From an uncultured Alphaproteobacteria bacterium (lineage in GTDB: Bacteria; Pseudomonadota; Alphaproteobacteria; Rs-D84): a stretch of DNA of 64,000 bases. The notes beneath the pieces are model-generated. The model saw only the letters and a list, made by a program, of their open reading frames with translations, searched no databases and was not told the origin of the DNA. Positions 3,337-62,216 of the stretch are shown here, piece after piece. Made by a program: the position numbers and the translations under genes. Numbering within the stretch: the first letter of the stretch is position 1; every line of letters starts with the position of its first letter. The stretch lies in contig CAMRSV010000001.1 of the NCBI GenBank assembly GCA_947053455.1, positions 36,937 through 100,936 of the forward strand, written 5' to 3'.

Positions 3337-3648
3337 TCACCATCCCTGCTCTGTCAAATCAAGTTCCAGTCGCGCACTTTCAGACATTCGCGACAAATCC
3401 CACGGCGGATCCCACACCAAATCAACCCGCACCGGCATTTGTGCGACTTCTGATGCGGCATCGCGAACTTGAGCCAGCAAATCCTCCATCATAGGACATG
3501 TCGGACTTGTGAACGTCATTGTAATTATAACTTCATCTTCATTTATGGCAATGTCATAAACCAATCCCAAATCCCATATGTTTACGGGTATCTCGGGATC
3601 ATATACGGTTTTCAGGGCGTTTATAATATCCTCTTTTGTGGGCAGCAT
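3337..3648 (-). CDS. sufT: SUF Fe-S assembly protein SufT (DUF59/MIP18 family)
   Basis: 103 aa with the DUF59 signature (YDPEIPVNIWDLGLVY ... TSPTCP). Adjacent to sufS and sufE. Confidence 0.8.
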   Translation of the reverse strand: MLPTKEDIINALKTVYDPEIPVNIWDLGLVYDIAINEDEVIITMTFTSPTCPMMEDLLAQVRDAASEVAQMPVRVDLVWDPPWDLSRMSESARLELDLTEQGW

Positions 3649-5592: not shown

Positions 5593-5626
5593 AAAAAACA
5601 AACCCGCCAAATGGCGGGTTTTTATT
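5593..5626 (+). terminator. rho-independent terminator after dksA
   Basis: Hairpin AACCCGCCAAATGGCGGGTT followed by TTTTT. Confidence 0.8.
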
Positions 5627-5669: not shown

Positions 5670-5915
5670 ATCACAGAGAATTTCTGTGATGGGGCGTCGA
5701 AACCCCTTATAGAGGGTCCGAATAAATTCGGACATTAATGGCACAAGGAAATAATTAATTATTTTCATAGTTGTGCCGCCTTCCAACCACAAAAGGTTGG
5801 AGGATGGCTGAATATATTGAATAGGCCTGCAATTCTCTATAATTGTTTCGAACCTCCAACCACTTGAACTTTTCCAGTGGTTTTTATTTATTAAAAGATT
5901 CAATGGAGTATAGAA
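5670..5915 (+). promoter_or_regulatory. conserved structured 5' leader, copy 1 (candidate riboswitch/attenuator) upstream of cysteine-rich secreted protein gene
   Basis: Perfect IR ATCACAGA-N5-TCTGTGAT (5670-5690). Box GGGGCGTCGAAACCCC (5691-5706). Hairpin CCTTCCAACC-ACAAAA-GGTTGGAGG (5777-5807). Then GAACCTCCAACCACT fused to terminator-like hairpin AACCACT..AGTGGTT+TTTTT (5850-5886), then RBS GGAG and ATG 5916. The same architecture recurs at three other loci. Confidence 0.7.
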
Positions 5916-6518
5916 ATGAGAAAATATCTTATAACTATTTTTGTTTTGTCTTTATCTTTGCCCGCCCGCGGCAACTTGGTAAGTGGCTCATATAAAGAAG
6001 GTGATTGGTGCTATAGTGATTGCACCTATCAAGGATGCCCGTCCGTCCGCAGATTTTCGTGCGGCGGATATTGCAACATGTATGAAATGCCCGATTGGCC
6101 AATCTGCAATAGTTATAACGAAGATGAATCCTGCGTAATTTGGAAAAGCAGCACAGAAATGTATTATTGCAGCCTAGGTGGGGAACATGCCTGCTACGAA
6201 ATTATTGGTTATGGCAGTAGCAAATATGAGACTTATAACACGACAAACCATAGTGTAAAATACTCTGAAATTCAGTTCGAACCAGATGACAACTATTATG
6301 ACAATTGCTCCATAGAAGACATTATCGAAGTTTCTTATGGATGCGCGGCCGGATATTATGTTTCAAGCGGATATGGTTCTAATATTTATTGTTCGACATG
6401 TCCCAACGGCGGTACAAGTTATATCGGAAATATTTCTCAATCTAATTGTTATTTACCCGCGGGAAATTTTAGCGATGCAACCGGCACCGGACAATATACA
6501 TCAAACTGCTACTGGTAA
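5916..6518 (+). CDS. secreted cysteine-rich protein, paralog 1 (EGF/ephrin-receptor-like Cys repeats)
   Basis: 200 aa with a signal peptide and about 20 Cys. The C-terminal ~60 aa (CAAGYY..C..CP.GG..C.LPAGNF..TGTGQY..C) is shared with the 37001..37618 protein. Confidence 0.75.
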   Translation: MRKYLITIFVLSLSLPARGNLVSGSYKEGDWCYSDCTYQGCPSVRRFSCGGYCNMYEMPDWPICNSYNEDESCVIWKSSTEMYYCSLGGEHACYEIIGYGSSKYETYNTTNHSVKYSEIQFEPDDNYYDNCSIEDIIEVSYGCAAGYYVSSGYGSNIYCSTCPNGGTSYIGNISQSNCYLPAGNFSDATGTGQYTSNCYW

Positions 6519-15937: not shown

Positions 15938-17941
15938 TTAATCAGATTTTGCGCGTGCCCCACAAATCGCACCAATACAGGAAACAATCAAAATAATTAT
16001 CATCCATGCATTTCTCCCAACCACCCGATATGGGGTCAAATGCGCCGTGCCGACATTTCCGTCAAGCACCCCTGGGGAACCGACCGGCAAATATGACACC
16101 ACCCGACCCGCCGCATCAACAAATGCACTTATTCCAGAATAATTCGCCCGAACAATCGGCGTGCCCGATTCAATCGCATAACGACGAACCATATCCAAAT
16201 GCTGATAAACGCCGGGCGTGTTGCCGAACCATGTATCATTTGTTATGTTTACAATCGCATCGGGCATCGCACCACGTGGTATCAGGGAATCAGAAAAAAT
16301 GATTTCATAACAAATTGCGGGCGCAAATGTAAATTCGCCACCATTGGTCTTGATAGAAATTATTTCTGGGCCTTTGCCGCGGTTTAAATCCGCGGGCGAC
16401 GGCATGATTCCGCCCAATGGTGAATATTCGCCGAACGGCACCAGGTGCGATTTGTTGTATATTTTTTGAACCATGCCATCCGCATCAGCCACAATCATTG
16501 AATTATAAAGTTTCGAATCCAAAAATGCAGTCGCCCCCAATACGACGGGACGTTTCAAGGCACGCGACATCGGCATGTCATTATCAACTACGACAAATGG
16601 GTATGTCGTTTCTGGAAAAATTATAATATCCGGATTCCCACCCGCGGCGGCCAAATCAATTAATTTCACAACGCCCCGCTCTGCACTGGCGATGCGTTCG
16701 GCACGAGATGCGCCATACGATATCTTCTCGGACTGGGCGCGTGCCGGTTGAACAATACGAATTGTTACTGATGATGGAACATTATCAAAGTTTGACTTTC
16801 GAATATTTTCATATCCAAAAATGGCGCCACCAATCAATGCAGCAACAAAAAAAATCGCGGAAATCATGCACATACGACATTTTCTATTACCTATAAAATC
16901 AACCGCCGCCGCAATCAGACCGACAATTATAAACGTAAGTCCCAATGCACCCCACAACGACATTGAATTTGCAATCACAGGATATGGCATTGCAATGTTT
17001 GCGACCGGATTCCATGGGAACCCTGTTAGCACCCATTCGCGCATCCACAACACCAATGTCCAAGAACCTGCGAAAACAAATGCCCGAGATGCAACCGACG
17101 CAAAATGCGCAGCCATAACAAATGGAATTGCAAACACAACCGCCCCGGCCAACCCCATGGCCAGCAACGCCGGAACGGTCCAGACTGCAAATTCTGCGGT
17201 CAATTCTGGAACAACATAAATTGAATTTAATGCCCACCAAAACATTGCAATGGCATATCCTGCGCCAAAAGGTGCCACCCGTAAAAACGAGAGCCATATT
17301 GTTTTGCGTGTTTTCCGCATCAATATCCAATACGCGAATCCAATCCCAACAATCGTTGCAGGCCATATATAAAATGGTGCAAAACCAAGTGCGGAAACAA
17401 CGCCGCAAAAAAACGGCGCAATTATATTTAACAGCCACTTTGCACGCCGCGACACCTTGCCGGACGCAGTAACAGTAACGTCATCCATATATGGATTTTT
17501 TAACCCTAATTTTTCCATTATTTTTATTTCGAATGATTCCATAATTTCTGCATCATCATCTTTGATATGATCATACCCCTGCAGGTGCAGCATCCCATGA
17601 ACCACCATGTGTGCAGTATGTTCGGCAACGGAAATTTTTGCGGCCGCCGCCTCGCGACGAACAGTATCAATAGATATATATATATCACCCATCAACACTG
17701 GGTCACCCAGTTCAAAAGACAAAACATTAGTCGGCCGGTCAATTCCGCGATAACTTTGATTCAATTCATGAATTTCTTTGTCATTTGTCAGAATAATCGA
17801 AACTTCAGAATCTTTGTATGCAGCGCCCACCGCCATGCAGGCGATTTTTTCAAAATCTATTTTATACTTTTTCCAACGATTATCGTTATAATTAACCCAA
17901 ACCTTCATTATTTGCCCCCAACGATTATGCGGTGTAATCAC
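15938..17941 (-). CDS. YbeY endoribonuclease (N-terminal ~150 aa, HGxLHLxGYDH) fused in-frame to apolipoprotein N-acyltransferase Lnt (C-terminal ~515 aa, CN-hydrolase)
   Basis: A single 667-aa ORF. The YbeY motif HGMLHLQGYDH is followed, without a stop, by MDDVTVTAS... (internal ATG at 17488), Lnt TM helices, and the catalytic CYEIIF region. Confidence 0.7.
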   Translation of the reverse strand: MITPHNRWGQIMKVWVNYNDNRWKKYKIDFEKIACMAVGAAYKDSEVSIILTNDKEIHELNQSYRGIDRPTNVLSFELGDPVLMGDIYISIDTVRREAAAAKISVAEHTAHMVVHGMLHLQGYDHIKDDDAEIMESFEIKIMEKLGLKNPYMDDVTVTASGKVSRRAKWLLNIIAPFFCGVVSALGFAPFYIWPATIVGIGFAYWILMRKTRKTIWLSFLRVAPFGAGYAIAMFWWALNSIYVVPELTAEFAVWTVPALLAMGLAGAVVFAIPFVMAAHFASVASRAFVFAGSWTLVLWMREWVLTGFPWNPVANIAMPYPVIANSMSLWGALGLTFIIVGLIAAAVDFIGNRKCRMCMISAIFFVAALIGGAIFGYENIRKSNFDNVPSSVTIRIVQPARAQSEKISYGASRAERIASAERGVVKLIDLAAAGGNPDIIIFPETTYPFVVVDNDMPMSRALKRPVVLGATAFLDSKLYNSMIVADADGMVQKIYNKSHLVPFGEYSPLGGIMPSPADLNRGKGPEIISIKTNGGEFTFAPAICYEIIFSDSLIPRGAMPDAIVNITNDTWFGNTPGVYQHLDMVRRYAIESGTPIVRANYSGISAFVDAAGRVVSYLPVGSPGVLDGNVGTAHLTPYRVVGRNAWMIIILIVSCIGAICGARAKSD

Positions 17942-19694
17942 CGTGCATAAAATTCACAACAGCCGCATTTTTAATTGTGTCGTCATTATGCAGTTTTTTC
18001 AATCCGGAATTAAACCCCAGCCGCTTGCCACGTGTTGTCATTTCTTTTGCGGCCTTGATGTACATTTGCAATTTTTCAATGTCGTTAACATCACCATTTT
18101 CGTAATTATAAACTGCGTTTTCAAAATTTTTAGCAGCCTTGCGATAATTCTCGCGTGCTTTGTCCGGCATTTTACGCGACATATATATGTCACCCATCGC
18201 ACGACGCGCACATCCGGCGGTATAGTAAGATTCTGCCTTGACATCACGGTCCATCAACAGGCTTTTGTTCGCGTTCATTCGACTATTACATTTTACAACA
18301 ACATTTACCGCGTTTTGAAAACATTCAATATCATTGTTTTGTTCGCCCAATTTATTATACGCATCGGCAAGTTCACTATATGCCCCCATATTATCCGCAT
18401 CTATATTAATCGCCTGTTGAAACAGCTCTATTGCCCCTTTGAAATCCATTGATACAATCTTGGCGTTTCCCTGATTAAGAAGTGACATGGATTCTTCAAT
18501 ATTTTTTGCGAGCAAGTTATCTTTTATCGCTGTATGTGCAACAATTCCGCGATTTTTTACCACATCAAGTATTTTTAGTCCGGCATCAAACCCGGATAAA
18601 AATTTTTCAACAGTACCGTTAACGCTGGGGCGCGTCATCACATATTTTACGGTTTGCTCCCCCAAAAGGAAATGCCCGTTTCTATAAATATTATTTATAT
18701 CAACACTGGAAAACGCATCACGACGCATTTTCAACAAATCATTCGCCGTTATAATGCCGGCGGCATACGCCGCACATACCCAACGACGCTTTAACGTACC
18801 GTCGCGCCACCTAGATGGAATTTTACCCGCAGTAAACGCATCTGCAACTTCCTGAACTGTTTTAGCACTATCTAAACGCGCGGCAATGTGCACCATATCG
18901 GATGGTCGCTGATACCCGGCCAGCAACATCGCAATCGCATGCCGGTCCGTAATATTTTTACGATTCTTTACCGCCCTCACCAATGCAGGCATTGTGTCAA
19001 ATTCAAGATGACGGCGCACCTGCTCATAATTTTCATCCTTGTCACGAACGATTGTATCGTTATCACTCGGCGTTTGCTGCAATTTGCCGTTATTGTCATA
19101 AGAATATATCCACGTTGTCCCCAGCCCATAAGTATACCTAGATTCGCCGGCATATTTACGCGGTGTCGCACGATATGTTTCTAACTCGGTCAGTCCGACC
19201 GCAATATCAACCCAATAGGCATCTAACGACAAAACTGCACTATCAATAATTTCTTTGTCGGTGTCAGTATCATTAACAATTTCAATTTTTGCGATATTTG
19301 AATCATCACGGGCATCATCCATTAATCTGTTAGCCCCAATAACAATTCCAGACAACATCATGTAGTACGTAAGGTAAGACAATATCCACGGATTCTTTTG
19401 CATAAAATCAGAAAATTTGTCATCTGCGCGCTGTGCCTTGATTTCCGGCGTAAAGAGAGATTTATACCCATGTTCCATTGCGCGCAGCAATACATTGTTA
19501 ACAATTGCAATATCAAACGTTTTTACCATATATGAAAACAGAGACAGCAGAAAGTATCCACCAACCTTTGCGGTTTGCCCCAGTTTTGATTCTGGATATG
19601 TCTGAAGCAATTGTCGACGGATGTTATCAATTTTTCCCGCCGCCCAATCCGGACCACGCCCGATTTTTTCTGCAACTGTTTTTTTATTTGCCAT
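17925..19694 (-). CDS. TPR repeat-containing protein (589 aa)
   Basis: C-terminal third shows TPR-like repeats (AIELFQQAINIDADNMGAYSELADAYNKLGE...). The N-terminal part has no recognised family. Confidence 0.6.
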   Translation of the reverse strand: MANKKTVAEKIGRGPDWAAGKIDNIRRQLLQTYPESKLGQTAKVGGYFLLSLFSYMVKTFDIAIVNNVLLRAMEHGYKSLFTPEIKAQRADDKFSDFMQKNPWILSYLTYYMMLSGIVIGANRLMDDARDDSNIAKIEIVNDTDTDKEIIDSAVLSLDAYWVDIAVGLTELETYRATPRKYAGESRYTYGLGTTWIYSYDNNGKLQQTPSDNDTIVRDKDENYEQVRRHLEFDTMPALVRAVKNRKNITDRHAIAMLLAGYQRPSDMVHIAARLDSAKTVQEVADAFTAGKIPSRWRDGTLKRRWVCAAYAAGIITANDLLKMRRDAFSSVDINNIYRNGHFLLGEQTVKYVMTRPSVNGTVEKFLSGFDAGLKILDVVKNRGIVAHTAIKDNLLAKNIEESMSLLNQGNAKIVSMDFKGAIELFQQAINIDADNMGAYSELADAYNKLGEQNNDIECFQNAVNVVVKCNSRMNANKSLLMDRDVKAESYYTAGCARRAMGDIYMSRKMPDKARENYRKAAKNFENAVYNYENGDVNDIEKLQMYIKAAKEMTTRGKRLGFNSGLKKLHNDDTIKNAAVVNFMHGDYTA

Positions 19695-24611: not shown

Positions 24612-24640
24612 AAAAAGGCCGGCATTTGCCGGTCTTTTTA
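24612..24640. terminator. bidirectional terminator (CCGGCA-TTTGCCGG hairpin)
   Basis: AAAAAAGGCCGGCATTTGCCGGTCTTTTT. Confidence 0.75.
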
Positions 24641-37000: not shown

Positions 37001-37618
37001 CTAGTTATATGTGCATTGCGCCGACATATTATAAGTTCCGGTATTATCATTGTACGTTCCGGCCGGCAGTTTACATTGCGTGACAGACGTGCTGCCGGCC
37101 GCGCTGGTACCATACGTCGTCGTGCCCGCAGAATTTAATTCACCGGGACAACGCGTGCACTTAAGCGACGATGTCGTACCAACGCCGTAATAGCCCGCCG
37201 CACATCTATATTCATTCGTCGCCGTCTCATCACCAGTTTTTCCGCATCCGGAAACAACATTATATTTTCTTTCGCGACCAGTGCCGGACGGGCGCCATTC
37301 ATTTGTGGTGCGCATTAAGCATCCGCAACCTATAAGGTTCGGGGGGTTATCGCTATCAACAACCGCCGTGGCACCGTTAAACACCTCTCCACACATGGAT
37401 TCACAATCTTCAACATTTCCCGAATATCCATCATCATAATAGCAAAGATTTGACCCATAGTCATAACACTCGTCAACATCATTACATTCGCCGGGTGATA
37501 TGGGCTCACTCACACCACCAAAAGTATAAAGCATATCCACTCCTGGATCATCACTATATAAATAAGCATTTGCCGCAAGCGGAAACACTAGAAACAATGC
37601 GATAACAATGCTTTTCAT
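37001..37618 (-). CDS. secreted cysteine-rich protein, paralog 2
   Basis: Signal peptide present. The C-terminal domain is homologous to the 5916..6518 product (CAAGYYG..C.RCPGE...CKLPAGTYNDNTGTY..C). Confidence 0.75.
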   Translation of the reverse strand: MKSIVIALFLVFPLAANAYLYSDDPGVDMLYTFGGVSEPISPGECNDVDECYDYGSNLCYYDDGYSGNVEDCESMCGEVFNGATAVVDSDNPPNLIGCGCLMRTTNEWRPSGTGRERKYNVVSGCGKTGDETATNEYRCAAGYYGVGTTSSLKCTRCPGELNSAGTTTYGTSAAGSTSVTQCKLPAGTYNDNTGTYNMSAQCTYN

Positions 37619-37795
37619 TTAACCCCTCTTTTTATTACAAAAAAACCACTAAAAATCAGTGGTTGGAGGTTCGAAACAATTATCAGGAATTGTGGGCTTA
37701 TTTAGTTATATCGCCACCCTCCAACCCATGGTTGGGGGAAAGTTTTTTCCTGATAAGGGGTTTCGACACCCCGTCCGCGCAACACCCGCCGACAA
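37619..37795 (-). promoter_or_regulatory. conserved structured 5' leader, copy 2
   Basis: Read in gene orientation: GGGGTGTCGAAACCCC box, hairpin CCCCCAACC-ATG-GGTTGGAGG, then GAACCTCCAACCACT-GATTTTT-AGTGGTTTTTTT terminator-like hairpin, then RBS and ATG. Confidence 0.7.
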
Positions 37796-37864
37796 ATTCA
37801 TTATAAATAAAATAAGAAATAATGTAAAATAAAATATGATTATGCAATCCAAACTTGACGCTAT

Positions 37865-37891
37865 AAAAAAGCCGGCATATGCCGGCTTTTT
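37865..37891. terminator. bidirectional terminator (GCCGGCATATGCCGGC)
   Basis: AAAAAAGCCGGCATATGCCGGCTTTTT. Confidence 0.8.
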
Positions 37892-37893
37892 CC

Positions 37894-39474
37894 CTACTCT
37901 TTGCGTATAGGGTATTGCCCGTCAATCAAGTTTTGCCGCACAACATGGTGTTTCACCTTTTGCGTGCTGGTGGTTGGCAAATCATCGGTTGTCATTGCAA
38001 AATGCGTGACCCATTTATAACTTGCAACCTTTTTATTGGCATTGGCGACGGCTGCCGATAGTTTTTCTAGCGTCATGTCATCTTCAACACTAAACACACC
38101 ATAAGTAACTGTTTTTCCCTTTACCTTGTGTTCAAAAACAGCGACGTTTTTTACCCCCGGAATTTCGATGAACATTCCTTCTAATTCATCGGGATAAACA
38201 TTCTTGCCCGAATCCAGAACAATCACCTGCTTTTTACGACCCGCAAAGTGCAATTCGCCATTCTTGTCCATGGAAACCATATCGCCCGTGTTAAAGAACC
38301 CACGTTCATCAAACACTTCTTCGTTAACACCTGGGTTGTTAAGATAGCCACCAAACACCTGATGGCCACGCAACCACAGAACACCGACACCATCTTCATT
38401 CATGTCGCGAATTTCGCATTCGTTGTTTGTTGTGGGCGCCCCAAAGGCAAATGGCATACGCTTTTTATTATGCTTTGAAATGCAGATTGGACCGACGGTT
38501 TCGGTCAAACCATATCCCTGAATAAAGCGCATTCCCAGACGTTCATAGAAAATCTCAACCTCCGGCTTGGTGGCGGCACCACCTGCAATCAGCAACGACA
38601 CACGGCCGCCGAATATTGCGCGCACAGGATTCTGCACTTTCTTTACCAGAAAACCAAGACCGATTTTATTCAAGATTTTTCCATATTTTAGCACCAACCG
38701 CGCAATCCACCATTTATGCTGCGCCTTTAGCGTATCTATTATTCGGTTACGAATTACCTCAAACAAACGCGGAACCGCCGGAATTGCATGCGGCCGGTAT
38801 TTCTTGAAGTCTTCCATAATTTCCTTTGGATTGACCGTCGGCTGCAACAGAACGCCCGCACCATAATGCAGCGTCGCCAGAATTTCAACCGCGAACCCAA
38901 AGATATGATACATCGGCAAGAAACCGTACATAATTTCGCCGGCATGAAAATATTCACGCATGTCATCCAGCGAATTTGCACACTCAATCAAATTAAAGTG
39001 TGTCAGTGGTACAACCTTTGGCGTGCCGGTTGAACCGGATGTGAACGACAATGTCGCAACGTCCAGCGTTTCCAGCGCGGCTGGTTTTAAGGCCGGGTTT
39101 ATTTTGCCGTCTTTCTTATTAATGTCATAAAACTTGAATTTATTGGTCTTATAAAAGAAAGACTTTTCCGCACACACAATGTGACAATCCGTTGTGGATG
39201 TCATGTTATCGTATTCAAACGGTGTTAGATTAGTATCCAGCAGCAACACCGTGCCCCCCAGATACCATATTGCGAACAAAGTTATCGGAAATTCGGGAAT
39301 ATTGTGCGACAACAGCCCCACGATATTTCCGCGCTTAACACCCGCCGCGGCAAGTGATGCGGCACGTGCCTTTACCATATCTTGGAAAGCGGAAAATGTG
39401 ACATTTTCACGAACCAAGAAAATATTATCCGGCCATGTTGCAACCGCTTTTTCCAGCAATTGATACATATTCAT
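37894..39474 (-). CDS. AMP-dependent synthetase/ligase (long-chain-fatty-acid--CoA ligase-like)
   Basis: AMP-binding region (FTSGSTGTPK) and the overall ANL-superfamily layout. Confidence 0.8.
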   Translation of the reverse strand: MNMYQLLEKAVATWPDNIFLVRENVTFSAFQDMVKARAASLAAAGVKRGNIVGLLSHNIPEFPITLFAIWYLGGTVLLLDTNLTPFEYDNMTSTTDCHIVCAEKSFFYKTNKFKFYDINKKDGKINPALKPAALETLDVATLSFTSGSTGTPKVVPLTHFNLIECANSLDDMREYFHAGEIMYGFLPMYHIFGFAVEILATLHYGAGVLLQPTVNPKEIMEDFKKYRPHAIPAVPRLFEVIRNRIIDTLKAQHKWWIARLVLKYGKILNKIGLGFLVKKVQNPVRAIFGGRVSLLIAGGAATKPEVEIFYERLGMRFIQGYGLTETVGPICISKHNKKRMPFAFGAPTTNNECEIRDMNEDGVGVLWLRGHQVFGGYLNNPGVNEEVFDERGFFNTGDMVSMDKNGELHFAGRKKQVIVLDSGKNVYPDELEGMFIEIPGVKNVAVFEHKVKGKTVTYGVFSVEDDMTLEKLSAAVANANKKVASYKWVTHFAMTTDDLPTTSTQKVKHHVVRQNLIDGQYPIRKE

Positions 39475-40375: not shown

Positions 40376-40567
40376 ATATGGGGTGTTCCCATATCGGGGT
40401 GTCAGAGCCTATGTCACGGCGTCCTTTGTTGGACGATAAATCTCCTGCCGGTCGGCAGGAGGGTTGATGTTATATATTGAAGACATCACACAATTTCCGT
40501 GAAATTGCTCTGAACCTCCTGCCACTCTAATAGAGTGGTTTTATTTTGATACGAGGGGTGAGTAAAA
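40376..40567 (+). promoter_or_regulatory. conserved structured 5' leader, copy 4 (compensatory-variant copy)
   Basis: GGGGTGTCAGAGCC box. The hairpin is CTCCTGCC-GGTC-GGCAGGAG instead of CCAACC/GGTTGG. The downstream segment GAACCTCCTGCCACT-CTAATAG-AGTGGTTTT carries the matching change. Confidence 0.7.
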
Positions 40568-41767
40568 ATGAAATTCAAAAAAATATCATATGCACTTGTT
40601 GCAATTATATGTACCATTGACGCATATGGCAAGGATATGCCTTCAAATATAAAAGAAGCATGGGGCAGCCCTACACTAATTTCTGAATCTTGGAGTCGCG
40701 GCAAAGGCCACGACAGCAGCACAAACATGCCAGACCAGACATTCTGGATGAGTAAAAAGGTTCGCGCCGATAACGCAAACGACGAAGCGATTGTAATTGT
40801 ATACATGGCGCGCCAAGTTGTAGAACACGGTGGATACTTTTGCGCGACGCAACTGCGTTCACGAAACAGCGGAAAATCCGGATGCCCGAACATTTGGACC
40901 CAATATCAAAATCCAACCGGCGATTTTGAACGCACATGCTTTTGGTTATGCGAACCGGGATACACCGGCGAAAATTGTGTCAGTGGTAAGGCAAAATCCG
41001 CAGACGCATGCAAATACACAAATTTATCCGCGGCCACACTATTAAAAGATATAGGGTTTCAACAAATGGGTGGCTATGACACCGCAACGGTGGAAAGCGC
41101 CATACATGATGCCGGCGCACGATTTTTTTATAGCAATACAACTCGCAAATCCGACGAATCTGATGTCATCCTTTTGGCAAAAGAATATCTTGAAAACGGC
41201 CACGGAATTGTTGCATCACCCGCAACATTTTCCGCGCACGGTGGCATGTGGAATGCAGAGAATTATTCCGATGAATGGCTGGATTGCAAATATGGCGATT
41301 CTAATTTAACCGTGACCGCTAATGGCGGCGGGTACACAACAAAAAAACTGTGCATGCCGGGATTTGACGGCGAAGATTGCACAACGACATATTGCAAAAC
41401 ATGCGACGATACGCTTGCCAAATACAATGATAAAACAGGTTCCTGCAGTGACTGTATTGAAAACCATATCCGCAACAAAGAAGGCAAATGCGAAAAGTGC
41501 CCGGCCGGAACAACTGCGGTACAGGATAAAAAAATCTGCCTAGAGTGCAAGAAAACCGAATATGTAAAGGATGGCGAATGTGTGCCACGTGATGTAATTG
41601 AAAAAAGCGTGCTTTATAACTGCTATCCGAATGAAAACGCAAATGATTTCAAGGCATGTGTATCAAGTACATGTACAAATGACGCAAAGGTAAAATGTGT
41701 AACCGCGCAAAAACAAATTGGCACCAAAAAATGCACCGGCGGTAAATGGGGTACATGCACAAAATAA
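40568..41767 (+). CDS. secreted cysteine-rich protein with EGF-like repeats (399 aa)
   Basis: Signal peptide present. Canonical EGF-like motifs CFWLCEPGYTGENC and CMPGFDGEDC, followed by a long C-x2-C-rich tail. Confidence 0.7.
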   Translation: MKFKKISYALVAIICTIDAYGKDMPSNIKEAWGSPTLISESWSRGKGHDSSTNMPDQTFWMSKKVRADNANDEAIVIVYMARQVVEHGGYFCATQLRSRNSGKSGCPNIWTQYQNPTGDFERTCFWLCEPGYTGENCVSGKAKSADACKYTNLSAATLLKDIGFQQMGGYDTATVESAIHDAGARFFYSNTTRKSDESDVILLAKEYLENGHGIVASPATFSAHGGMWNAENYSDEWLDCKYGDSNLTVTANGGGYTTKKLCMPGFDGEDCTTTYCKTCDDTLAKYNDKTGSCSDCIENHIRNKEGKCEKCPAGTTAVQDKKICLECKKTEYVKDGECVPRDVIEKSVLYNCYPNENANDFKACVSSTCTNDAKVKCVTAQKQIGTKKCTGGKWGTCTK

Positions 41768-45635: not shown

Positions 45636-47261
45636 ATGATACAAAATAAAATGGATTTTGCAATGTATATGAACAGATTTTTGATTTTTGGTGCTTTTGG
45701 GGCGATACTGGCGGGGTGTGCACAAAATTCGCAAAAACGTGACTGGTTTTCCGAATACGGTGAAATTCCGACCGGCACACCGGTTCAGATGCAATACGGC
45801 ACAACGCCCACATCTGCGGTAGATGTTGATACCCCACGACGCATGGCGGTAATGCTGCCATTATCAGGCGACGCGGCCACTGCGGGCAACGCGATACAAT
45901 CGGCAATAGAAATCGCCGTACTACAGAACGCGCCAAAAAACCTGTCTGTTTCGTTTTATGACACGGCGATTGATGCACCACGACAAATCGCGACCGCATT
46001 GGCGACAAATCCCGAAATAATTATCGGGCCGCTGTTCGCGCGCGATGCCAACATGGTTCGCACACAAAAGGGAATGGAAACCCCAGTTTTATCCTTTACA
46101 TCAGACGCGACCGCGGTGGGTGGCGGCGTTATGACAATGGCACTTATGCCCACCAATAGTGTCGAGGCAATTATCAACGAAATGGCTGCGGATCGCGTTG
46201 ATAATTTCATAATAATTTCCCCAGACAATGAATCAGGGCGACTAATGGCGGGTGTCGCGACACAGGCTGCAAAATTACAACAGATTAAGATAAGTGGCAT
46301 ATTCTACTATACGGAAAATGATACGGAATCTATAAAAAATGCGACGATTGATGCAACCATGAATAAGGCACGAACCGCCGCCAACACCCGTGCACGCGAA
46401 ATACTGTCGGACATACTGACAACGGAACGGCTAACAGCGATTGAAAAATCCGATTTGACTATGCAATTGGAAAAAATATCAAAGACCGACACAATCGGCA
46501 ATCTGCCCTATAATGCGGTTCTGTTTTTGGGGTCGGGCGACGACACAAAAAGTCTGGCATCCTTTATGCGCTATTACGGGTTGGGCGCGCGCGACGCACG
46601 TTTCTATGGAACGGCCGTATGGGATGGTGCGGACATAATGTACGACCTTACTATGTCTGGGGCTAAATTTGCGACATTACCGGTGGCAGATGCAGAATTT
46701 TCATTACTTTATGAACAGGTAACGGGCGCGCAACCGTCCAGACTTGCCACATTTGGGTTTGATGCCGCACGCATGGCAATAGGCATGATAAATTCCGAAA
46801 AATCCAATGCGGCATACCTGCTGGATCCGAGTGGATACATTGGCACAGATGGGCTGTTGCGACTGCGCCCCAATGGTGAAAATGAACGCGCATTGCGCAT
46901 AGTGCAATTAAACGGAACGGCCACACCACGTGAAATAAAACCAGCACCGCAAAATTTCATGAGCCCGATTTATAACATTGAACAGCGTCATATCTCGGCC
47001 GCGGACGCAATGGAATTGGAAACACCGGGGATTAACCCTATGGACTATATCAAAATACCAGACCGTTTGCGTGACAGATATAATGAGGAAACATACGGAA
47101 TGCATTTGACAGTTACACCGATTGAGGCCAACACAATTGACAATGTTGTAACCATACTGCCCGAAGACGACAGCGACGTAATTGTCACGCCGGATTTTCA
47201 ACCCGTAAATTTGGAATCGGTAAACCGAAAATATATAGAAGATGTTGAAATAACCGAATAA
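45636..47261 (+). CDS. LpoA-like periplasmic lipoprotein (penicillin-binding protein activator-like, PBP1 fold)
   Basis: Lipoprotein signal (ILAGC), a type-1 periplasmic-binding-like body, and divergent rsmI synteny as with E. coli yraL/yraM. Confidence 0.55.
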   Translation: MIQNKMDFAMYMNRFLIFGAFGAILAGCAQNSQKRDWFSEYGEIPTGTPVQMQYGTTPTSAVDVDTPRRMAVMLPLSGDAATAGNAIQSAIEIAVLQNAPKNLSVSFYDTAIDAPRQIATALATNPEIIIGPLFARDANMVRTQKGMETPVLSFTSDATAVGGGVMTMALMPTNSVEAIINEMAADRVDNFIIISPDNESGRLMAGVATQAAKLQQIKISGIFYYTENDTESIKNATIDATMNKARTAANTRAREILSDILTTERLTAIEKSDLTMQLEKISKTDTIGNLPYNAVLFLGSGDDTKSLASFMRYYGLGARDARFYGTAVWDGADIMYDLTMSGAKFATLPVADAEFSLLYEQVTGAQPSRLATFGFDAARMAIGMINSEKSNAAYLLDPSGYIGTDGLLRLRPNGENERALRIVQLNGTATPREIKPAPQNFMSPIYNIEQRHISAADAMELETPGINPMDYIKIPDRLRDRYNEETYGMHLTVTPIEANTIDNVVTILPEDDSDVIVTPDFQPVNLESVNRKYIEDVEITE

Positions 47262-47287
47262 AAAACCGGCATATGCCGGTTTTTTTA
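47261..47287. terminator. bidirectional terminator (ACCGGCATATGCCGGT)
   Basis: AAAAAACCGGCATATGCCGGTTTTTTT. Confidence 0.8.
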
Positions 47288-50608: not shown

Positions 50609-50633
50609 AAAACGGGGCATTGCCCCGTTTTTA
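50609..50633. terminator. bidirectional terminator
   Basis: AAAACGGGGCATTGCCCCGTTTTT. Confidence 0.8.
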
Positions 50634-51527
50634 CTTTAATTCAAACAAATGCATTATTATATCACCACCTTCATATGTTGCCTCGTCTGCCAAGCCGGTA
50701 ACATTGGTGTTATTAGTATTTGTATTCCATTGACCCACGGGGGCATATGATGTCGTCGCGGACACATATTTTTCATGTGCTGTGTCGATAAAAAATTGAA
50801 CAATATTATTCCCCAAAATCCCAGCATAACCCACCGGTTGATCAAACACTGCCATATACGCATATGACACGGATGCGGATCGCCCATCCAATGCATCAAT
50901 TAGATTTGGTTTGTCTGAAATCCCAGGCCCCTTGTAACGTGCAACAAACAGGTATGTTCCCGGTCCTATGGTTCCACCCATACACATTTCATCAACCGAA
51001 AAATCATCTATGTTTGAACTGTTTATATTCTGATTTATTTTCGCACAGGATTTTACCCGACGCCATACGCTTATGTCTGATTTCGGAATAAATTTTTCAA
51101 CCGCGGACAATGTCATAAATTTATTTACATTGCCAAGCCCATCTGGCTGTGCATTGGCATTGCGACTAAAATTAACTTCCGGACAACCTATTGCGCCATA
51201 TGTGCATACCGCGCGATGAAGCCCACCCGTACAGTAATGACCCATGCCGCAATTGACACATTCACTGTTATTCATCAAGTACTGGCCAGGCTCGCACCAC
51301 TTGCCCACCCAATAATCTTTCGCCCCCACCCGCAGGCGCAGCGCCCCGGTCGGCGCAGCGGATGAATACATTGCACCATACCATTTCTCGTCTGCAATAG
51401 AAACCGCCAACGCAGGCGAAGTATTTCGCGTGGAATTAAGTGGCACTGACCGGTCGCCAAAATGCAACATGCGCGCATAACATGCGGCATTAAAAAATAA
51501 TGTAAAAAATAAAACTATATATCTCAT
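50631..51527 (-). CDS. secreted cysteine-rich protein, paralog 3 (298 aa)
   Basis: Signal peptide present. The N-terminal half carries C..G.Y....C..C..G.YC.GG repeats related to the other paralogs, and the C-terminal half is Cys-poor. Confidence 0.65.
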   Translation of the reverse strand: MRYIVLFFTLFFNAACYARMLHFGDRSVPLNSTRNTSPALAVSIADEKWYGAMYSSAAPTGALRLRVGAKDYWVGKWCEPGQYLMNNSECVNCGMGHYCTGGLHRAVCTYGAIGCPEVNFSRNANAQPDGLGNVNKFMTLSAVEKFIPKSDISVWRRVKSCAKINQNINSSNIDDFSVDEMCMGGTIGPGTYLFVARYKGPGISDKPNLIDALDGRSASVSYAYMAVFDQPVGYAGILGNNIVQFFIDTAHEKYVSATTSYAPVGQWNTNTNNTNVTGLADEATYEGGDIIMHLFELK

Positions 51528-51713
51528 CTACCGTTACGACGTAATAAATGCCGTCATATAAATCAGACGGCTGGAGGTTAGAAACTATAAAACGGTATAG
51601 TGTCGTTTATTCAGTATATTCACGAGCCCTCCAACCGAATGTTGGAGTTTTTTTCGTCCACACGGACGCCGTTTTAAAGGTTTCTACACCCCACAGCATT
51701 TATCTTATGCTGC
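51528..51713 (-). promoter_or_regulatory. conserved structured 5' leader, copy 3 (diverged)
   Basis: Gene orientation: hairpin CAGCAT..ATGCTG, box GGGGTGTAGAAACC, hairpin CTCCAAC-ATTC-GGTTGGAGG, then CTAACCTCCAGCC fused to hairpin GCCGTCTGATTTATATGACGGC with an A/T tail, then ATG. Confidence 0.6.
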
Positions 51714-59350: not shown

Positions 59351-59376
59351 AAATGGGGTGCATCCCCCATTTTTTA
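59350..59376. terminator. bidirectional terminator
   Basis: AAAATGGGGTGCATCCCCCATTTTTT. Confidence 0.8.
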
Positions 59377-60378
59377 TTTCCGGTCAATCAATTTCAAAAT
59401 GCGCCGCCGATATTTTCGTGCGCGCATTGTTTGCACAAAATCCAGCGCACCGTCACGATACATTTTATCAAAATATATCCGTGCCGCATCCATGCCACCT
59501 GGAAACCCGCGTGCAGCGCGCATAACAATTATGAAAAATGGCCATAAAAATTCACGTGACCATGTCCTTAATTGTTTTGTATTGGAATGTTTTTTTGCAT
59601 ACAAGTATGATGCCGCCGTCGCACGTGATATATTTTCAAAAACGTTACGTGATGTTGCGGCATTTAATGCCGACGACATATTCGGCACATAATAGTACAG
59701 TGGCGTCCGCAAAATAACCGCATGTGGCCGACGCAGCAAAATCTCGGTCCACCAGAGAAAATCTTCAGCAATTTTTATGGACGTGTCAAATTTCATTCCA
59801 GAAATAAATTTGCGGCGCATTAAATGCATCCATGGATAGCAATGCCGAATGCGAAACAATCCAAACGAATGGTTTCGTTCCGTTGAATACCCCAGCAAAT
59901 TATCCGTCACGACACCCGTCACGCACGCCGGATTATAAACATGCGCCAAGGATTTTGGCACAAAATCCGCCGTATCAAGACCCGAACGCAACAGACGACG
60001 CATCCCCATTTGTGCACGCGCGTCAAAGCGAAAAGAAACAGTGTCGGCATTATTCTTATCCGCCAGGCATGTTGTTATTTCAAACAATTGCGGATGTATA
60101 AAATCATCGCTGTCTATAAATATCACATATTGCCCACGGGCAAGCTTTATACCGTCATTTCGCGCCGCAGATACACCCCCATTTTCTTTGTGGATTACAC
60201 GTATACGCTTGTCACGACGCGCATATTCATCCAGTATTTTTCCACTGTTGTCCGGACTGCCGTCGTCGACACATATCGCCTCCCAGTCCGTTAATGTCTG
60301 ACTCATCACACTGTCTAGACATCTGCGCACATATCTTTCAACTTTATATACTGGTATTATTACACTTACTTTGGGCAT
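59374..60378 (-). CDS. family 2 glycosyltransferase (GT2), tandem copy 1
   Basis: N-terminus VSVIIPVYKVERYVRRCLDSV..DWEAICVDDGSPDNSG..DSDD is the classic GT2 fold. Confidence 0.88.
   Translation of the reverse strand: MPKVSVIIPVYKVERYVRRCLDSVMSQTLTDWEAICVDDGSPDNSGKILDEYARRDKRIRVIHKENGGVSAARNDGIKLARGQYVIFIDSDDFIHPQLFEITTCLADKNNADTVSFRFDARAQMGMRRLLRSGLDTADFVPKSLAHVYNPACVTGVVTDNLLGYSTERNHSFGLFRIRHCYPWMHLMRRKFISGMKFDTSIKIAEDFLWWTEILLRRPHAVILRTPLYYYVPNMSSALNAATSRNVFENISRATAASYLYAKKHSNTKQLRTWSREFLWPFFIIVMRAARGFPGGMDAARIYFDKMYRDGALDFVQTMRARKYRRRILKLIDRK
60124..60378. repeat. 255-bp block 100% identical to 60922..61176 (5' ends of adjacent GT2 genes)
   Basis: Direct comparison: CACATATTGCCCACGGGCAAG...CTTACTTTGGGCAT is identical at both sites. 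Confidence 0.85.
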
Positions 60379-60381
60379 AGC

Positions 60382-61188
60382 TTATCCCCTAAAAAATTTT
60401 CCAACATACGGCAATTTCTGCAGTTTACGCATACGCCACAACCATATCAATCCGTGTTCACGCGCAAACGTGCGTCGAAACTTTTTACTGGCCTTGTAAT
60501 CCAGTTTCATTTTTTTTCTTTTTTCCACATCACGCGAATTCAACAACGACAAATCGTTGAACATATAGTGATATAGCACATCGGGCACAACCACCAAAAG
60601 GCGCATACGCGTCAAAATCCGCAGCAGGAAATCCATATCCTCCATTGTCATCATGCCAACCGGAAAAGAAATTCCGCAATCGGATAAAAACTTACGCGAG
60701 AAAACATACCGCCACACATACCCATCCGACAATGCATTTGTTCGTTTAAAAATTCCAAATGTAGTACGCACAACGCGCATACGGTTGTACAACAATCCTT
60801 TTGTATATTTAACATTTGTGACAAATCCGCTTACCGCGGCATCCGCACCGGTACTAACCAGTGCATCAATCATTTTCTCATAATAATCTGGGTCGATAAA
60901 ATCATCACTGTCCATGAAATGCACATATTGCCCACGGGCAAGCTTTATACCGTCATTTCGCGCCGCAGATACACCCCCATTTTCTTTGTGGATTACACGT
61001 ATACGCTTGTCACGACGCGCATATTCATCCAGTATTTTTCCACTGTTGTCCGGACTGCCGTCGTCGACACATATCGCCTCCCAGTCCGTTAATGTCTGAC
61101 TCATCACACTGTCTAGACATCTGCGCACATATCTTTCAACTTTATATACTGGTATTATTACACTTACTTTGGGCATTTTTACTGTCAT
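60382..61188 (-). CDS. family 2 glycosyltransferase (GT2), tandem copy 2
   Basis: The first ~85 aa are identical to copy 1 (MPKVSVIIPVYKVERYV...ARGQYV), and the C-terminal domain is distinct. An alternative start MPKVS lies at 61176. Confidence 0.85.
   Translation of the reverse strand: MTVKMPKVSVIIPVYKVERYVRRCLDSVMSQTLTDWEAICVDDGSPDNSGKILDEYARRDKRIRVIHKENGGVSAARNDGIKLARGQYVHFMDSDDFIDPDYYEKMIDALVSTGADAAVSGFVTNVKYTKGLLYNRMRVVRTTFGIFKRTNALSDGYVWRYVFSRKFLSDCGISFPVGMMTMEDMDFLLRILTRMRLLVVVPDVLYHYMFNDLSLLNSRDVEKRKKMKLDYKASKKFRRTFAREHGLIWLWRMRKLQKLPYVGKFFRG
60922..61176. repeat. 255-bp block identical to 60124..60378
   Basis: See paired repeat. Confidence 0.85.
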
Positions 61189-61190
61189 GG

Positions 61191-62216
61191 TTATTTATTT
61201 CGGGGTCGAATAAAATCATATATTTTTGCACGAACTTTGGCAGCCCACTTGAACGGCGGATTGTCCAACGCGCCAATTTTATTCATTTCTACAAAGCATT
61301 CACGCGCCGCATTCAAATCATGCGCATTGTCTATGTATTTTATCTTGCTGAACGCCTTTTTTATAAAAAACCATTTAAAATTGTCGGTCCAGCACCGTGT
61401 CTGATATTCATTGGCACTTTTATGATACAACATGTACGCGTCATTGATTCCGATGCACAATCCCTGCAGTATATGCAATGCCTTGGCCGACAAAACAATT
61501 CCACCAAAATTCGGGCGATAAAAAACCAAGGGCATGCGCGTAATTGTAGTTCGCGGCTGCTTAAGCAAAAGTGCCGACCACCACGGAACATCCTCAAACA
61601 AAATACCTTTTATAAACGCGATATCTTGAATCATTTCGCGCCGATACAGGTTTTTCCAAACCTGGCAATGCTTTACCAGCCATTTTCTTTTCAAATTAAA
61701 GGGGTTGTGCGTACGTTCGGTCGCATATTTAAATATATCGTCCGTTACACGTGTTTTTATTTTTGCCGCATCATACCGGCGCCGTATACTTTTCGGTACG
61801 ACATTATCTGTGTCCAAACCCAATTTATGCCGTATCATCATTTTCGGCCGATACGAACGGTCGTACGTAAACGCCACCATATCTGAATTGTCGCGGCGCG
61901 CCAGGGTATATGTCACCTCCATCGCCTGGGGATGCAAAAAGTCATCACTGTCCAGATACATGACATAATCGCCGCGTGCATGCTTCATTCCAGTATTTCG
62001 CGCAACGGACAGTCCCATATTTTCCTGCGTAAAGACCTTGAAGCGTTTATCGCGCGCGGCATATTCTGCCAAAATCTTGCCACTATTGTCTGGGCTGCCG
62101 TCGTCGACGCATATCGCCTCCCAGTCGGTAAATGTCTGCGCAATCACACTGTCTAGGCATGCCCGCAGATATTTTTCAACCTTAAAAACAGGTATAATTA
62201 TTGAAATTGCTGGCAT
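61191..62216 (-). CDS. family 2 glycosyltransferase (GT2), tandem copy 3 (diverged)
   Basis: MPAISIIIPVFKVEKYLRACLDSV..DWEAICVDDGSPDNSG..DSDD. The 5' DNA is partly similar to copies 1 and 2. Confidence 0.85.
   Translation of the reverse strand: MPAISIIIPVFKVEKYLRACLDSVIAQTFTDWEAICVDDGSPDNSGKILAEYAARDKRFKVFTQENMGLSVARNTGMKHARGDYVMYLDSDDFLHPQAMEVTYTLARRDNSDMVAFTYDRSYRPKMMIRHKLGLDTDNVVPKSIRRRYDAAKIKTRVTDDIFKYATERTHNPFNLKRKWLVKHCQVWKNLYRREMIQDIAFIKGILFEDVPWWSALLLKQPRTTITRMPLVFYRPNFGGIVLSAKALHILQGLCIGINDAYMLYHKSANEYQTRCWTDNFKWFFIKKAFSKIKYIDNAHDLNAARECFVEMNKIGALDNPPFKWAAKVRAKIYDFIRPRNK

Follow-up and report, generated by a model that had tools for sequence, protein, structure and literature searches.

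A probable family of riboswitch-like, transcription-attenuating leader RNAs before secreted-protein and regulator genes of Rs-D84 alphaproteobacteria

A stretch of 64,000 nucleotides (nt) from an uncultured alphaproteobacterium of the lineage Rs-D84 (contig CAMRSV010000001.1, positions 36,937 to 100,936; hereafter the window, numbered from its first letter) carries at 37619-37795 the minus-strand 5' leader of the open reading frame (ORF) 37618-37001. This leader, termed copy 2, probably belongs to a new family of transcription-attenuating, riboswitch-like, cis-acting 5' leaders that precede genes for secreted or surface proteins and for XRE-type regulators, as judged from sequence conservation and covariation. 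The RNA family was previously uncatalogued and is absent from Rfam. Four copies of a leader of about 140-200 nt are found within 64 kb of so small a genome, which argues that the leader matters. It stands before the genes that are likeliest to mediate contact with a partner, namely those for secreted cysteine-rich proteins, some of which have TNF-receptor- or ephrin-receptor-like modules (sub-threshold matches). For RNA biology, the leader represents a well-populated structured family with strong covariation and two conserved predicted alternative folds, and is a candidate for the discovery of a ligand or factor. For microbiome biology, its covariance model provides a marker for the regulated secretome of this lineage and a handle on its switching.

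Conservation and anatomy of the leader

The initial annotation held that copy 2 and a second leader of the window (copy 1) have in common an identical segment and a GGGG box. The identical segment is the 26-mer ATAATTGTTTCGAACCTCCAACCACT, present in exact form at 5839-5864 on the plus strand and at 37658-37683 on the minus strand, with no third match in the window even when three mismatches were allowed and none expected from 100 shuffles. The GGGG box GGGGYGTCGAAACCCCTTAT was found exactly twice, at 5691-5710 (plus strand) and 37753-37772 (minus strand), and was likewise not expected in shuffled sequence. The longest block common to both copies spans 45 nt at 87% identity. In the two downstream proteins, whose signal peptides and N-terminal halves had been described as unrelated, BLASTP aligned about 69 C-terminal residues at 39% identity (E=3e-9), and aligned neither the signal peptides nor the N-terminal two thirds.

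A pairwise identity profile bore out the claim that the leader is more conserved than the adjacent coding sequence (CDS), both between paralogs and between orthologs. Copies 1 and 2 have 81.5% identity in the 3' half of the leader, while their CDSs reach about 63% in a forced global alignment against a shuffled baseline of about 51%. Between copy 2 and its ortholog in a related metagenome-assembled genome (MAG; locus L001), identity is 92% in the leader, 77% in its own CDS and 89% in the neighbouring acyl-CoA synthetase gene. This greater conservation, the recurrence of the leader before unrelated genes in dozens of species and hundreds of compensatory changes support the earlier proposal of purifying selection on the leader itself, rather than recent duplication.

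Each cassette consists, in order, of a sigma-70-type promoter, a 5'-terminal hairpin, a G-run, the 5' strands of two long-range helices (P1 and P2), an optional insert hairpin, hairpins P3 and P4, the switch segment CCUCCWRACC, a terminator and the gene's own ribosome-binding site. In copy 2, for which the RNA sense is the minus strand to which all of the following coordinates refer, a promoter-like site, TTTACA-17 nt-TATAAT, lies at 37800..37828 and matches the consensus at 11 of 12 positions. It is followed at 37773..37793 by the 5'-terminal hairpin (predicted fold GUC.GCG ... CGC.GAC) and directly after it by the GGGG run at 37769-37772, which with CCCC at 37757-37760 forms a local hairpin, P0. 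The P1 5' strand, UCGAAAC (37760-37766), sits in the P0 loop and pairs with GUUUCGA at 37671..37677. The P2 5' strand, UUAUCAGG (37749..37756), pairs with CCUGAUAA at 37679-37686; the corresponding strands of copy 1, UUAUAGAG/CUCUAUAA, are compensated relative to those of copy 2.

The interior of the leader contains the P3 hairpin, CCCCCAACC-AUG-GGUUGGAGGG (37717..37738), whose 3' strand doubles as the 5' strand of a predicted antiterminator, and the P4 hairpin (37693..37716), whose 15-nt loop is near-invariant and reads GAUAUAACUAAAUAA here against a family consensus of GAAUAUAUUGAAUAA. A further local hairpin, P5 (ACAAUU...AAUUGU, 37676..37693), has the P2 3' strand as its loop. The switch segment, ACCUCCAACC (37661..37670), has as its partners the 5' G-run in what we call the closed fold or GGUUGGAGG of P3 in the antiterminator. 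Its last bases are the start of the stem of a terminator-like site, AACCACU-GAUUUUU-AGUGGUU plus a U tract (37639..37664), after which come a ribosome-binding site and the AUG at 37618. The ORF at 37001..37618 that is thereby placed behind the leader encodes a cysteine-rich, 205-aa signal-peptide protein.

The designation "3' switch region" in the initial annotation proved apt, in that CCUCCWRACC covaries with both P3 strands and overlaps the terminator stem. It does not hold as a single sequence-specific site; the segment is near-identical between copies because it pairs with two or three partners, which may be the 5' G-run and the 3' strands of P3 and of the terminator.

The leader family and its alternative folds

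A family pattern was written from seven sequences and scanned on one genome per species, resulting in matches at at least 119 loci. The pattern is strict and catches only two of the four window copies, so that per-genome copy numbers are lower bounds; the family counts given here (116-129 sequences or instances and 148 copies) are drawn from loci among the matches listed. All but one of these matches lie in Candidatus Enterousia (order Rs-D84) or in MAGs labelled "Alphaproteobacteria" or "Rickettsiales", and the single outlier, an actinobacterial locus (L093), is a chance match to the pattern. The loci derive from the guts of ruminants, horse, pig, chicken, rabbit, human and termite, and single assemblies hold several of them. 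Enterousia and Rs-D84 are uncultured gut alphaproteobacteria with genomes of 0.75-1.0 Mb that lack the TCA cycle, respiration and standard transporters, and have been interpreted as obligate symbionts or parasites (PMC12306168); one leader locus, L064, comes from a MAG listed in that study. The pattern had no match on viral contigs, which indicates that at this stringency the leader is not phage-borne.

A covariance model was then built from 40 short-form copies. The closed fold was supplied by hand because RNAalifold, applied to a MAFFT alignment, gave only the open fold: it returned P0, the antiterminator, P4, P5 and the terminator, and missed P1, P2 and P3. In the window the model found four matches at E<=1e-17; the two copies noted initially are thus real but were an under-count. 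Across the window and the loci together (about 1 Mb) it found at least 148 copies, and it had no match on the negative-control loci L093 and L008. Copy 2 scored 123 bits at 37636-37776 (minus strand). The next best match in the window, at 17925-18062 (12.9 bits, E=0.12), lacked any motif box and was treated as chance.

Comparison with relatives, proposed earlier as a check, showed that the helices of the leader are kept by compensatory changes. Homologs of the copy 2 protein at 43-74% identity all have the same leader with such changes; L004, for example, has UCAGAAC/GUUCUGA in P1 and ACCACC/GGUGGU in the terminator, and L006 has UGAUGAC/GUCAUCA in P1 together with the UCAGGAGG/CCUCCUGA variant described below. 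A more distant homolog locus of protein P0010 (L008) is without the leader, which indicates that protein family and leader are separable.

Structure was tested on a covariance-model alignment of 120 sequences (A3). For the closed fold (P1, P3, P4, inner P5 and terminator), 97.4% of cells were paired, compared with 35-48% in slid-partner controls, 24 of 26 pairs showed changes on both sides, and none of 500 shuffles was as good. For the open fold, 94.4% of cells were paired and 12 of 17 pairs showed double changes. All seven P1 pairs showed double changes, with 99.9% of cells paired and all four Watson-Crick types seen at the four central pairs. P2 could not be aligned by column; the best contiguous helix per sequence averaged 7.0 bp, compared with 4.0 bp when partners were swapped between sequences, and 91 distinct partner strands were present across the family. 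The sequences of P1 and P2 are therefore hypervariable yet always complementary.

Covariation extended to P3 and the switch segment. All seven P3 pairs showed double changes, and variation in the switch segment follows that of both P3 strands in three ways: a P3 3' strand of UCAGGAGG (DNA TCAGGAGG) went with a switch segment of CCUCCUGA (DNA CCTCCTGA) in 65 of 65 instances, UUGGAGG (TTGGAGG) was consistently accompanied by CCUCCAA (CCTCCAA), and CUGGAGG (CTGGAGG) by CCUCCAG (CCTCCAG) in four of five. The combination of GCAGGAGG with CCUCCUGC was also seen, and copy 3 of the window has the UGCC variant of P3 and switch segment. In P0, where the G-run pairs with CCYN, A3 columns 6/19 were GC in 76, GU in 22 and AU in 20 sequences, and GAAG goes with CUUC. 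The P5 core pair was AU in 74 and UA in 44. Stem pairs of P4 also covaried (UA 53, UG 21, GC 16 and CG 7 at one; CG 88, UG 25 and UA 6 at another), and its loop positions G250, A252 and G272-A277 of A3 were about 95-100% conserved. In the terminator, five of six stem pairs showed double changes (AU 86 and GC 29 at one pair, and others), and the columns after the stem were T in 76-111 of 118 sequences.

A mutual-information scan with no assumed structure recovered P1, P2, P3, P5, the terminator and the antiterminator. The scan also added a pairing of the Y after the G-run (A3 column 9) with R309 of a CRC triplet immediately 5' of P5 (UA 90, CG 22), which extends to a GYG:CRC contact between columns 8-10 and 308-310 that crosses P1 and P2 and is likely a tertiary or pseudoknot contact; in copy 2 it joins G37769-U37768-G37767 to C37694-A37693-C37692. 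An outer P5 pair (columns 309-335) was rejected, since the six sequences with C335 show compensation at the P1 partner (G16) and an uncompensated P5 partner (A309).

P2 and P5 are arranged in a-b-a'-b' order with practically no linker, and from this we infer that P0/P5 and P1/P2 are alternatives; a simultaneous H-type pseudoknot of P2 and P5 was rejected on steric grounds, as almost no linker appears to separate their 3' strands. Collectively, the covariation supports two predicted, mutually exclusive folds: a closed fold with P1, P2, P3, P4 and the terminator, and an open fold with P0, P5 and the antiterminator.

A recognition site would most likely lie in the P4 loop (37698-37712 on the minus strand in copy 2) or at the GYG:CRC contact. 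The loop consensus, GAAUAUAUUGAAUAA, contains GAAUA twice. Long-form inserts, as in L006, L014, L022 and L032, often begin with GCGUCGGAAUA, which supplies a third GAAUA. Such repetition could mark a motif recognised by a protein, or a tertiary docking site.

Proposed mechanism, downstream genes and comparison with known leaders

The family -10 box matched at six of six positions in 75 and at five of six in 34 of 121 instances, and in 81 of the 121 it ended 6-7 nt before the 5' hairpin. The predicted transcription start lies at the base of this hairpin, near 37793 in copy 2. The hairpin abuts the G-run; its contiguous stem averages 8.4 bp, compared with 4.4 bp for shuffled sequence, and the 121 instances comprise 117 different hairpin sequences. 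When folding energies were calculated, the closed fold was the minimum-free-energy structure in 99 of 116 leaders and was on average about 10 kcal/mol more stable than a fold in which the antiterminator was imposed. Mean energies were -20.0 kcal/mol for the antiterminator duplex, -13.3 for the P3 hairpin, -10.1 for the terminator, -5.7 for the G-run with CCUCC and -6.1 for P0.

We propose that the leader decides whether transcription stops at the built-in intrinsic terminator before the gene. In the closed fold, P1 and P2 would clamp the 5' and 3' parts of the leader together, the G-run could pair with CCUCC, and the P3 hairpin and terminator would form. In the open fold, P0 and P5 would replace P1 and P2, and the P3 3' strand would pair with the switch segment in a 10-bp antiterminator that takes away the first bases of the terminator stem. 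At about -20 kcal/mol, the antiterminator comes close to the combined energy of P3 and the terminator (about -23 kcal/mol), so that closure of the P1/P2 clamp, in which CCUCC is captured by the G-run, presumably tips the choice. The level of read-through would then be set by an effector acting for or against this closure. Because the closed, terminating fold is the calculated ground state, we lean toward a model in which the genes would be off by default and transcribed upon conditional antitermination. Candidate effectors are a small molecule such as a second messenger and, equally, a lineage-specific RNA-binding protein at the P4 loop or a trans-acting RNA.

The genes downstream of 129 pattern instances were classified by crude sequence rules. 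About 85 encode proteins with signal-peptide-like N termini that fall into several unrelated families: proteins of about 200 aa with a YRCAAGYYG...CxxCP C-terminal module, "YCWCKM" proteins of about 145 aa, "IPSTEYVQQQIA" proteins of 70-100 aa, and large repeat proteins. Small proteins without a signal peptide account for a further 23; both of the two that were scanned against Pfam match XRE-type helix-turn-helix (HTH) families, and one passes the curated cut-off of HTH_31, the only above-cut-off Pfam match among the regulon members scanned. Another 15 instances had no nearby ORF and are mostly at contig ends. In about 115 of the 129 instances, a start codon that has its own ribosome-binding site follows 40-65 nt downstream, in the same sense as the leader.

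Pfam gave no match for the proteins downstream of copies 1 and 2, and, apart from the HTH_31 match, only sub-threshold TNFR, ephrin-receptor-like and PKD matches for other members of the regulon; those of the cysteine-rich proteins were TNFR or ephrin-receptor-like. The copy 2 protein is rare, with just 13 relatives found in a search of 5.8 billion proteins. The secreted cysteine-rich proteins of the window and of loci L004-L130 form a diverse, lineage-restricted set, some members of which share a C-terminal module, YRCAAGYYG...CxxCP...CY.P.G, with sub-threshold TNFR or ephrin-receptor-like matches. A gene set of secreted cysteine-rich proteins and XRE HTH regulators is compatible with control by a signalling molecule, and names none.

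No known RNA family accounted for the leader. Rfam 15 (4227 covariance models) had no match at gathering score in the whole window and, at E<=10, only chance-level matches on 37400-38000, mostly on the neighbouring terminator; at E<=1 on eight leader-bearing loci, no match overlapped a leader. Literature on Enterousia, Rs-D84 and riboswitch candidates yielded no account of the leader RNA, within a coverage that was incomplete and leaves an earlier description possible. Of the features generic to riboswitches, the leader has a structured domain supported by covariation and, in silico, mutually exclusive helices that include a terminator. Its predicted working principle resembles that of terminator-type riboswitches, T-box leaders or protein-dependent antitermination leaders.

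In genomic behaviour, the family most resembles the regulons of c-di-GMP riboswitches, with many copies and a surface or secreted regulon. The c-di-GMP-I (GEMM-I, RF01051) and c-di-GMP-II (RF01786) classes are multi-copy, transcription-terminating riboswitches that control surface and secreted proteins. Like them, the leader is a structured 5' element with predicted tertiary or pseudoknot contacts, in which an alternative helix uses the 5' strand of the intrinsic terminator; it has many copies per genome, and its regulon consists mostly of secreted or surface proteins and regulators, not metabolic genes. Neither RF01051 nor RF01786 was matched by cmscan even at E<=10, and unlike these classes the leader has an elaborately conserved "off" fold (14 covarying base pairs in P1 plus P2) and host genomes below 1 Mb.

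T-box leaders (RF00230) are similar in length (about 150-250 nt), in their exclusive terminator and antiterminator helices and modular inserts, and in having a near-identical "switch" sequence in all copies of a genome while the remainder varies. However, the leader has no specifier loop, T-box sequence or cmscan match to RF00230, the genes behind it are not those of aminoacyl-tRNA synthetases or amino-acid metabolism, and its hypervariable segments pair in cis rather than with tRNA. Protein-dependent antitermination leaders include the RAT targets of BglG/LicT, ANTAR targets and those of PyrR, TRAP and HutP. As in these, a choice between terminator and antiterminator with default termination is predicted, and the P4 loop could be a protein site, but the leader structure is much larger. 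No RAT hairpin, ANTAR double hexaloop or triplet-repeat array was seen on reading the leader sequences, for which no dedicated model was run.

A broader interpretation is that the leader is a new riboswitch class, or a leader-plus-factor system, that senses one signal (a second messenger or a partner or host cue), with dozens of near-identical switches governing most of the secreted and surface proteome together with the XRE regulators. We regard this reading as less likely than not. Were it true, the leader would be the master regulatory device of the interface between cell and partner in an obligate symbiont or parasite.

Alternative explanations and other features of the window

Several observations weigh against transcription attenuation by a riboswitch-like leader. 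The attenuator function is deduced from sequence only. The model alignment was fitted to the closed fold, so that the pair percentages given above are somewhat inflated, a bias mitigated by the mutual-information scan and the per-sequence partner-shuffle tests; copies within a genome are related, so that counts of changed cells are overstated and do not represent independent events. The antiterminator core, GGAGG:CCUCC, is invariant, and the covariation evidence for the antiterminator thus comes from its outer 3-5 pairs only. Even without an effector, the calculated ground state terminates. No transport or metabolism gene in the regulon points to a ligand, and a classical metabolite riboswitch is consequently without support. 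Finally, complete promoter-leader-terminator cassettes without a coding sequence are present at L081 4304-4464 and L021 7105-7275, both on the minus strand. About 65-80 nt after each of these cassettes is a second promoter and cassette in tandem, and the geneless cassettes may represent independent small RNAs, switches in tandem or copies in decay.

The geneless cassettes also bear on the best-surviving alternative, in which the cassettes would be genes for trans-acting small RNAs of about 140-200 nt, with CCUCC as an anti-Shine-Dalgarno-like segment and the downstream genes merely read through. Consistent with such a role, the calculated ground state is the terminated form, and CCUCC and GGAGG are invariant. 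We consider this explanation improbable, because the leader is placed at a fixed short distance before a sense start codon with its own ribosome-binding site in the great majority of instances (about 115 of 129), the antiterminator pairing covaries, which would be purposeless in a pure small RNA, and neither fold leaves CCUCC unpaired. A leader could have both roles, as do SreA and SreB of Listeria, riboswitch-derived small RNAs that also act in trans. As with SreA/SreB, the terminated leader would be an abundant, stable, structured RNA, and some cassettes are without a gene; unlike there, the evidence here points to no trans target.

It is considerably less probable still that the conservation operates at the level of DNA, as a repeated extragenic element or a recombination or gene-conversion tract. 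The leader and the C-terminal module could, for example, be the two flanks between which variable N-terminal coding regions are swapped, an arrangement suggested by copies 1 and 2, in which a conserved leader and C-terminal module flank unrelated N-terminal parts, and by the presence of multiple copies within one genome. However, the conservation obeys RNA pairing rules, including G-U pairs that are workable on one strand only, and P1 and P2 vary strongly in sequence while retaining complementarity. Orientation and distance to promoter and gene are fixed, and many unrelated downstream families lack the C-terminal module, including cytoplasmic HTH proteins. Repetitive extragenic palindromes and MITE-like repeats were rejected on similar grounds, the element being located between promoter and start codon, in sense orientation, and hypervariable yet complementary.

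Two further explanations appear very unlikely. In a leader-peptide attenuator, translation of a short ORF would decide termination; an AUG is present at the junction of 5' hairpin and G-run (A3 column 3, UGAUGGGG; for example window 5689-5691) in 67 of 120 copies, and the GGAGG of P3 resembles a Shine-Dalgarno sequence. The ORFs that start at the junction AUG nevertheless range from 6 to 48 codons, their stops are scattered and their peptides unrelated; this AUG is not preceded by a Shine-Dalgarno sequence, and GGAGG does not have a properly spaced start codon in every variant. No conserved short ORF with its ribosome-binding site was therefore found, the explanation was rejected, and the junction AUG seems to arise incidentally from conserved bases. 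A self-cleaving ribozyme, or a processed structured RNA of some other kind that is not a switch, would be in keeping with the many copies, high conservation, multiple helices and long-range tertiary pair of the RNA; no Rfam ribozyme family was matched, however, and the terminator/antiterminator logic and fixed place between promoter and gene are better explained by attenuation.

A remnant of recent segmental duplication, to which the 26-nt identical block within one genome might point, can be dismissed, as the flanking CDSs are near the random baseline rather than identical, copies 1 and 2 differ by compensated P2 changes and a 50-nt insert, and the same structure is found in orthologous and paralogous leaders across dozens of species; P2 compensation, protein alignment, family covariation and the identity profile had already refuted it.

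The three other window copies precede ORFs of different sizes; copies 3 and 4 are those that the family pattern did not catch. Copy 1 (5687..5890, plus strand; 87.1 bits, E=2e-20) has a two-hairpin insert between P2 and P3, 50 nt relative to copy 2, and a fold z-score of -5.7; it is followed by an ORF of 200 aa at 5916-6518 on the plus strand. Copy 3 (40392..40548, plus strand; 77 bits, E=8e-18), which has UGCC/GGCA in P3 and switch segment and a P4 stem of GAUG/CAUC, precedes a 399-aa cysteine-rich ORF with a signal peptide at 40568-41767 (plus strand). Copy 4 (51541..51696, minus strand) scored highest, at 127 bits (E=2e-30), and precedes a 298-aa ORF with a signal peptide at 50631-51527 (minus strand).

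A family of near-identical, palindromic terminator-like sequences, AAAAAGCCGGCATATGCCGGCTTTTT, was also observed in the window, at 5598-5623, 24613-24638, 37866-37891 and 47260-47285. Its members are able to act in both directions. The member at 37866-37891 is the terminator of the gene upstream of copy 2 and insulates that cassette from the acyl-CoA synthetase gene.

Two observations were made apart from the leaders. On the minus strand at 59374-62216 are three tandem paralogous ORFs of 334, 268 and 341 aa, in which the first 300 nt of the CDSs are repeated at 94% and 69% identity (repeat family D1); from a reading of their N-terminal sequences, they look like family-2 glycosyltransferases. 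Among the loci outside the window, L049 carries at 3400-3490 a long perfect palindrome at a contig end, which produced spurious sub-threshold microRNA matches in Rfam and is probably an assembly artefact.

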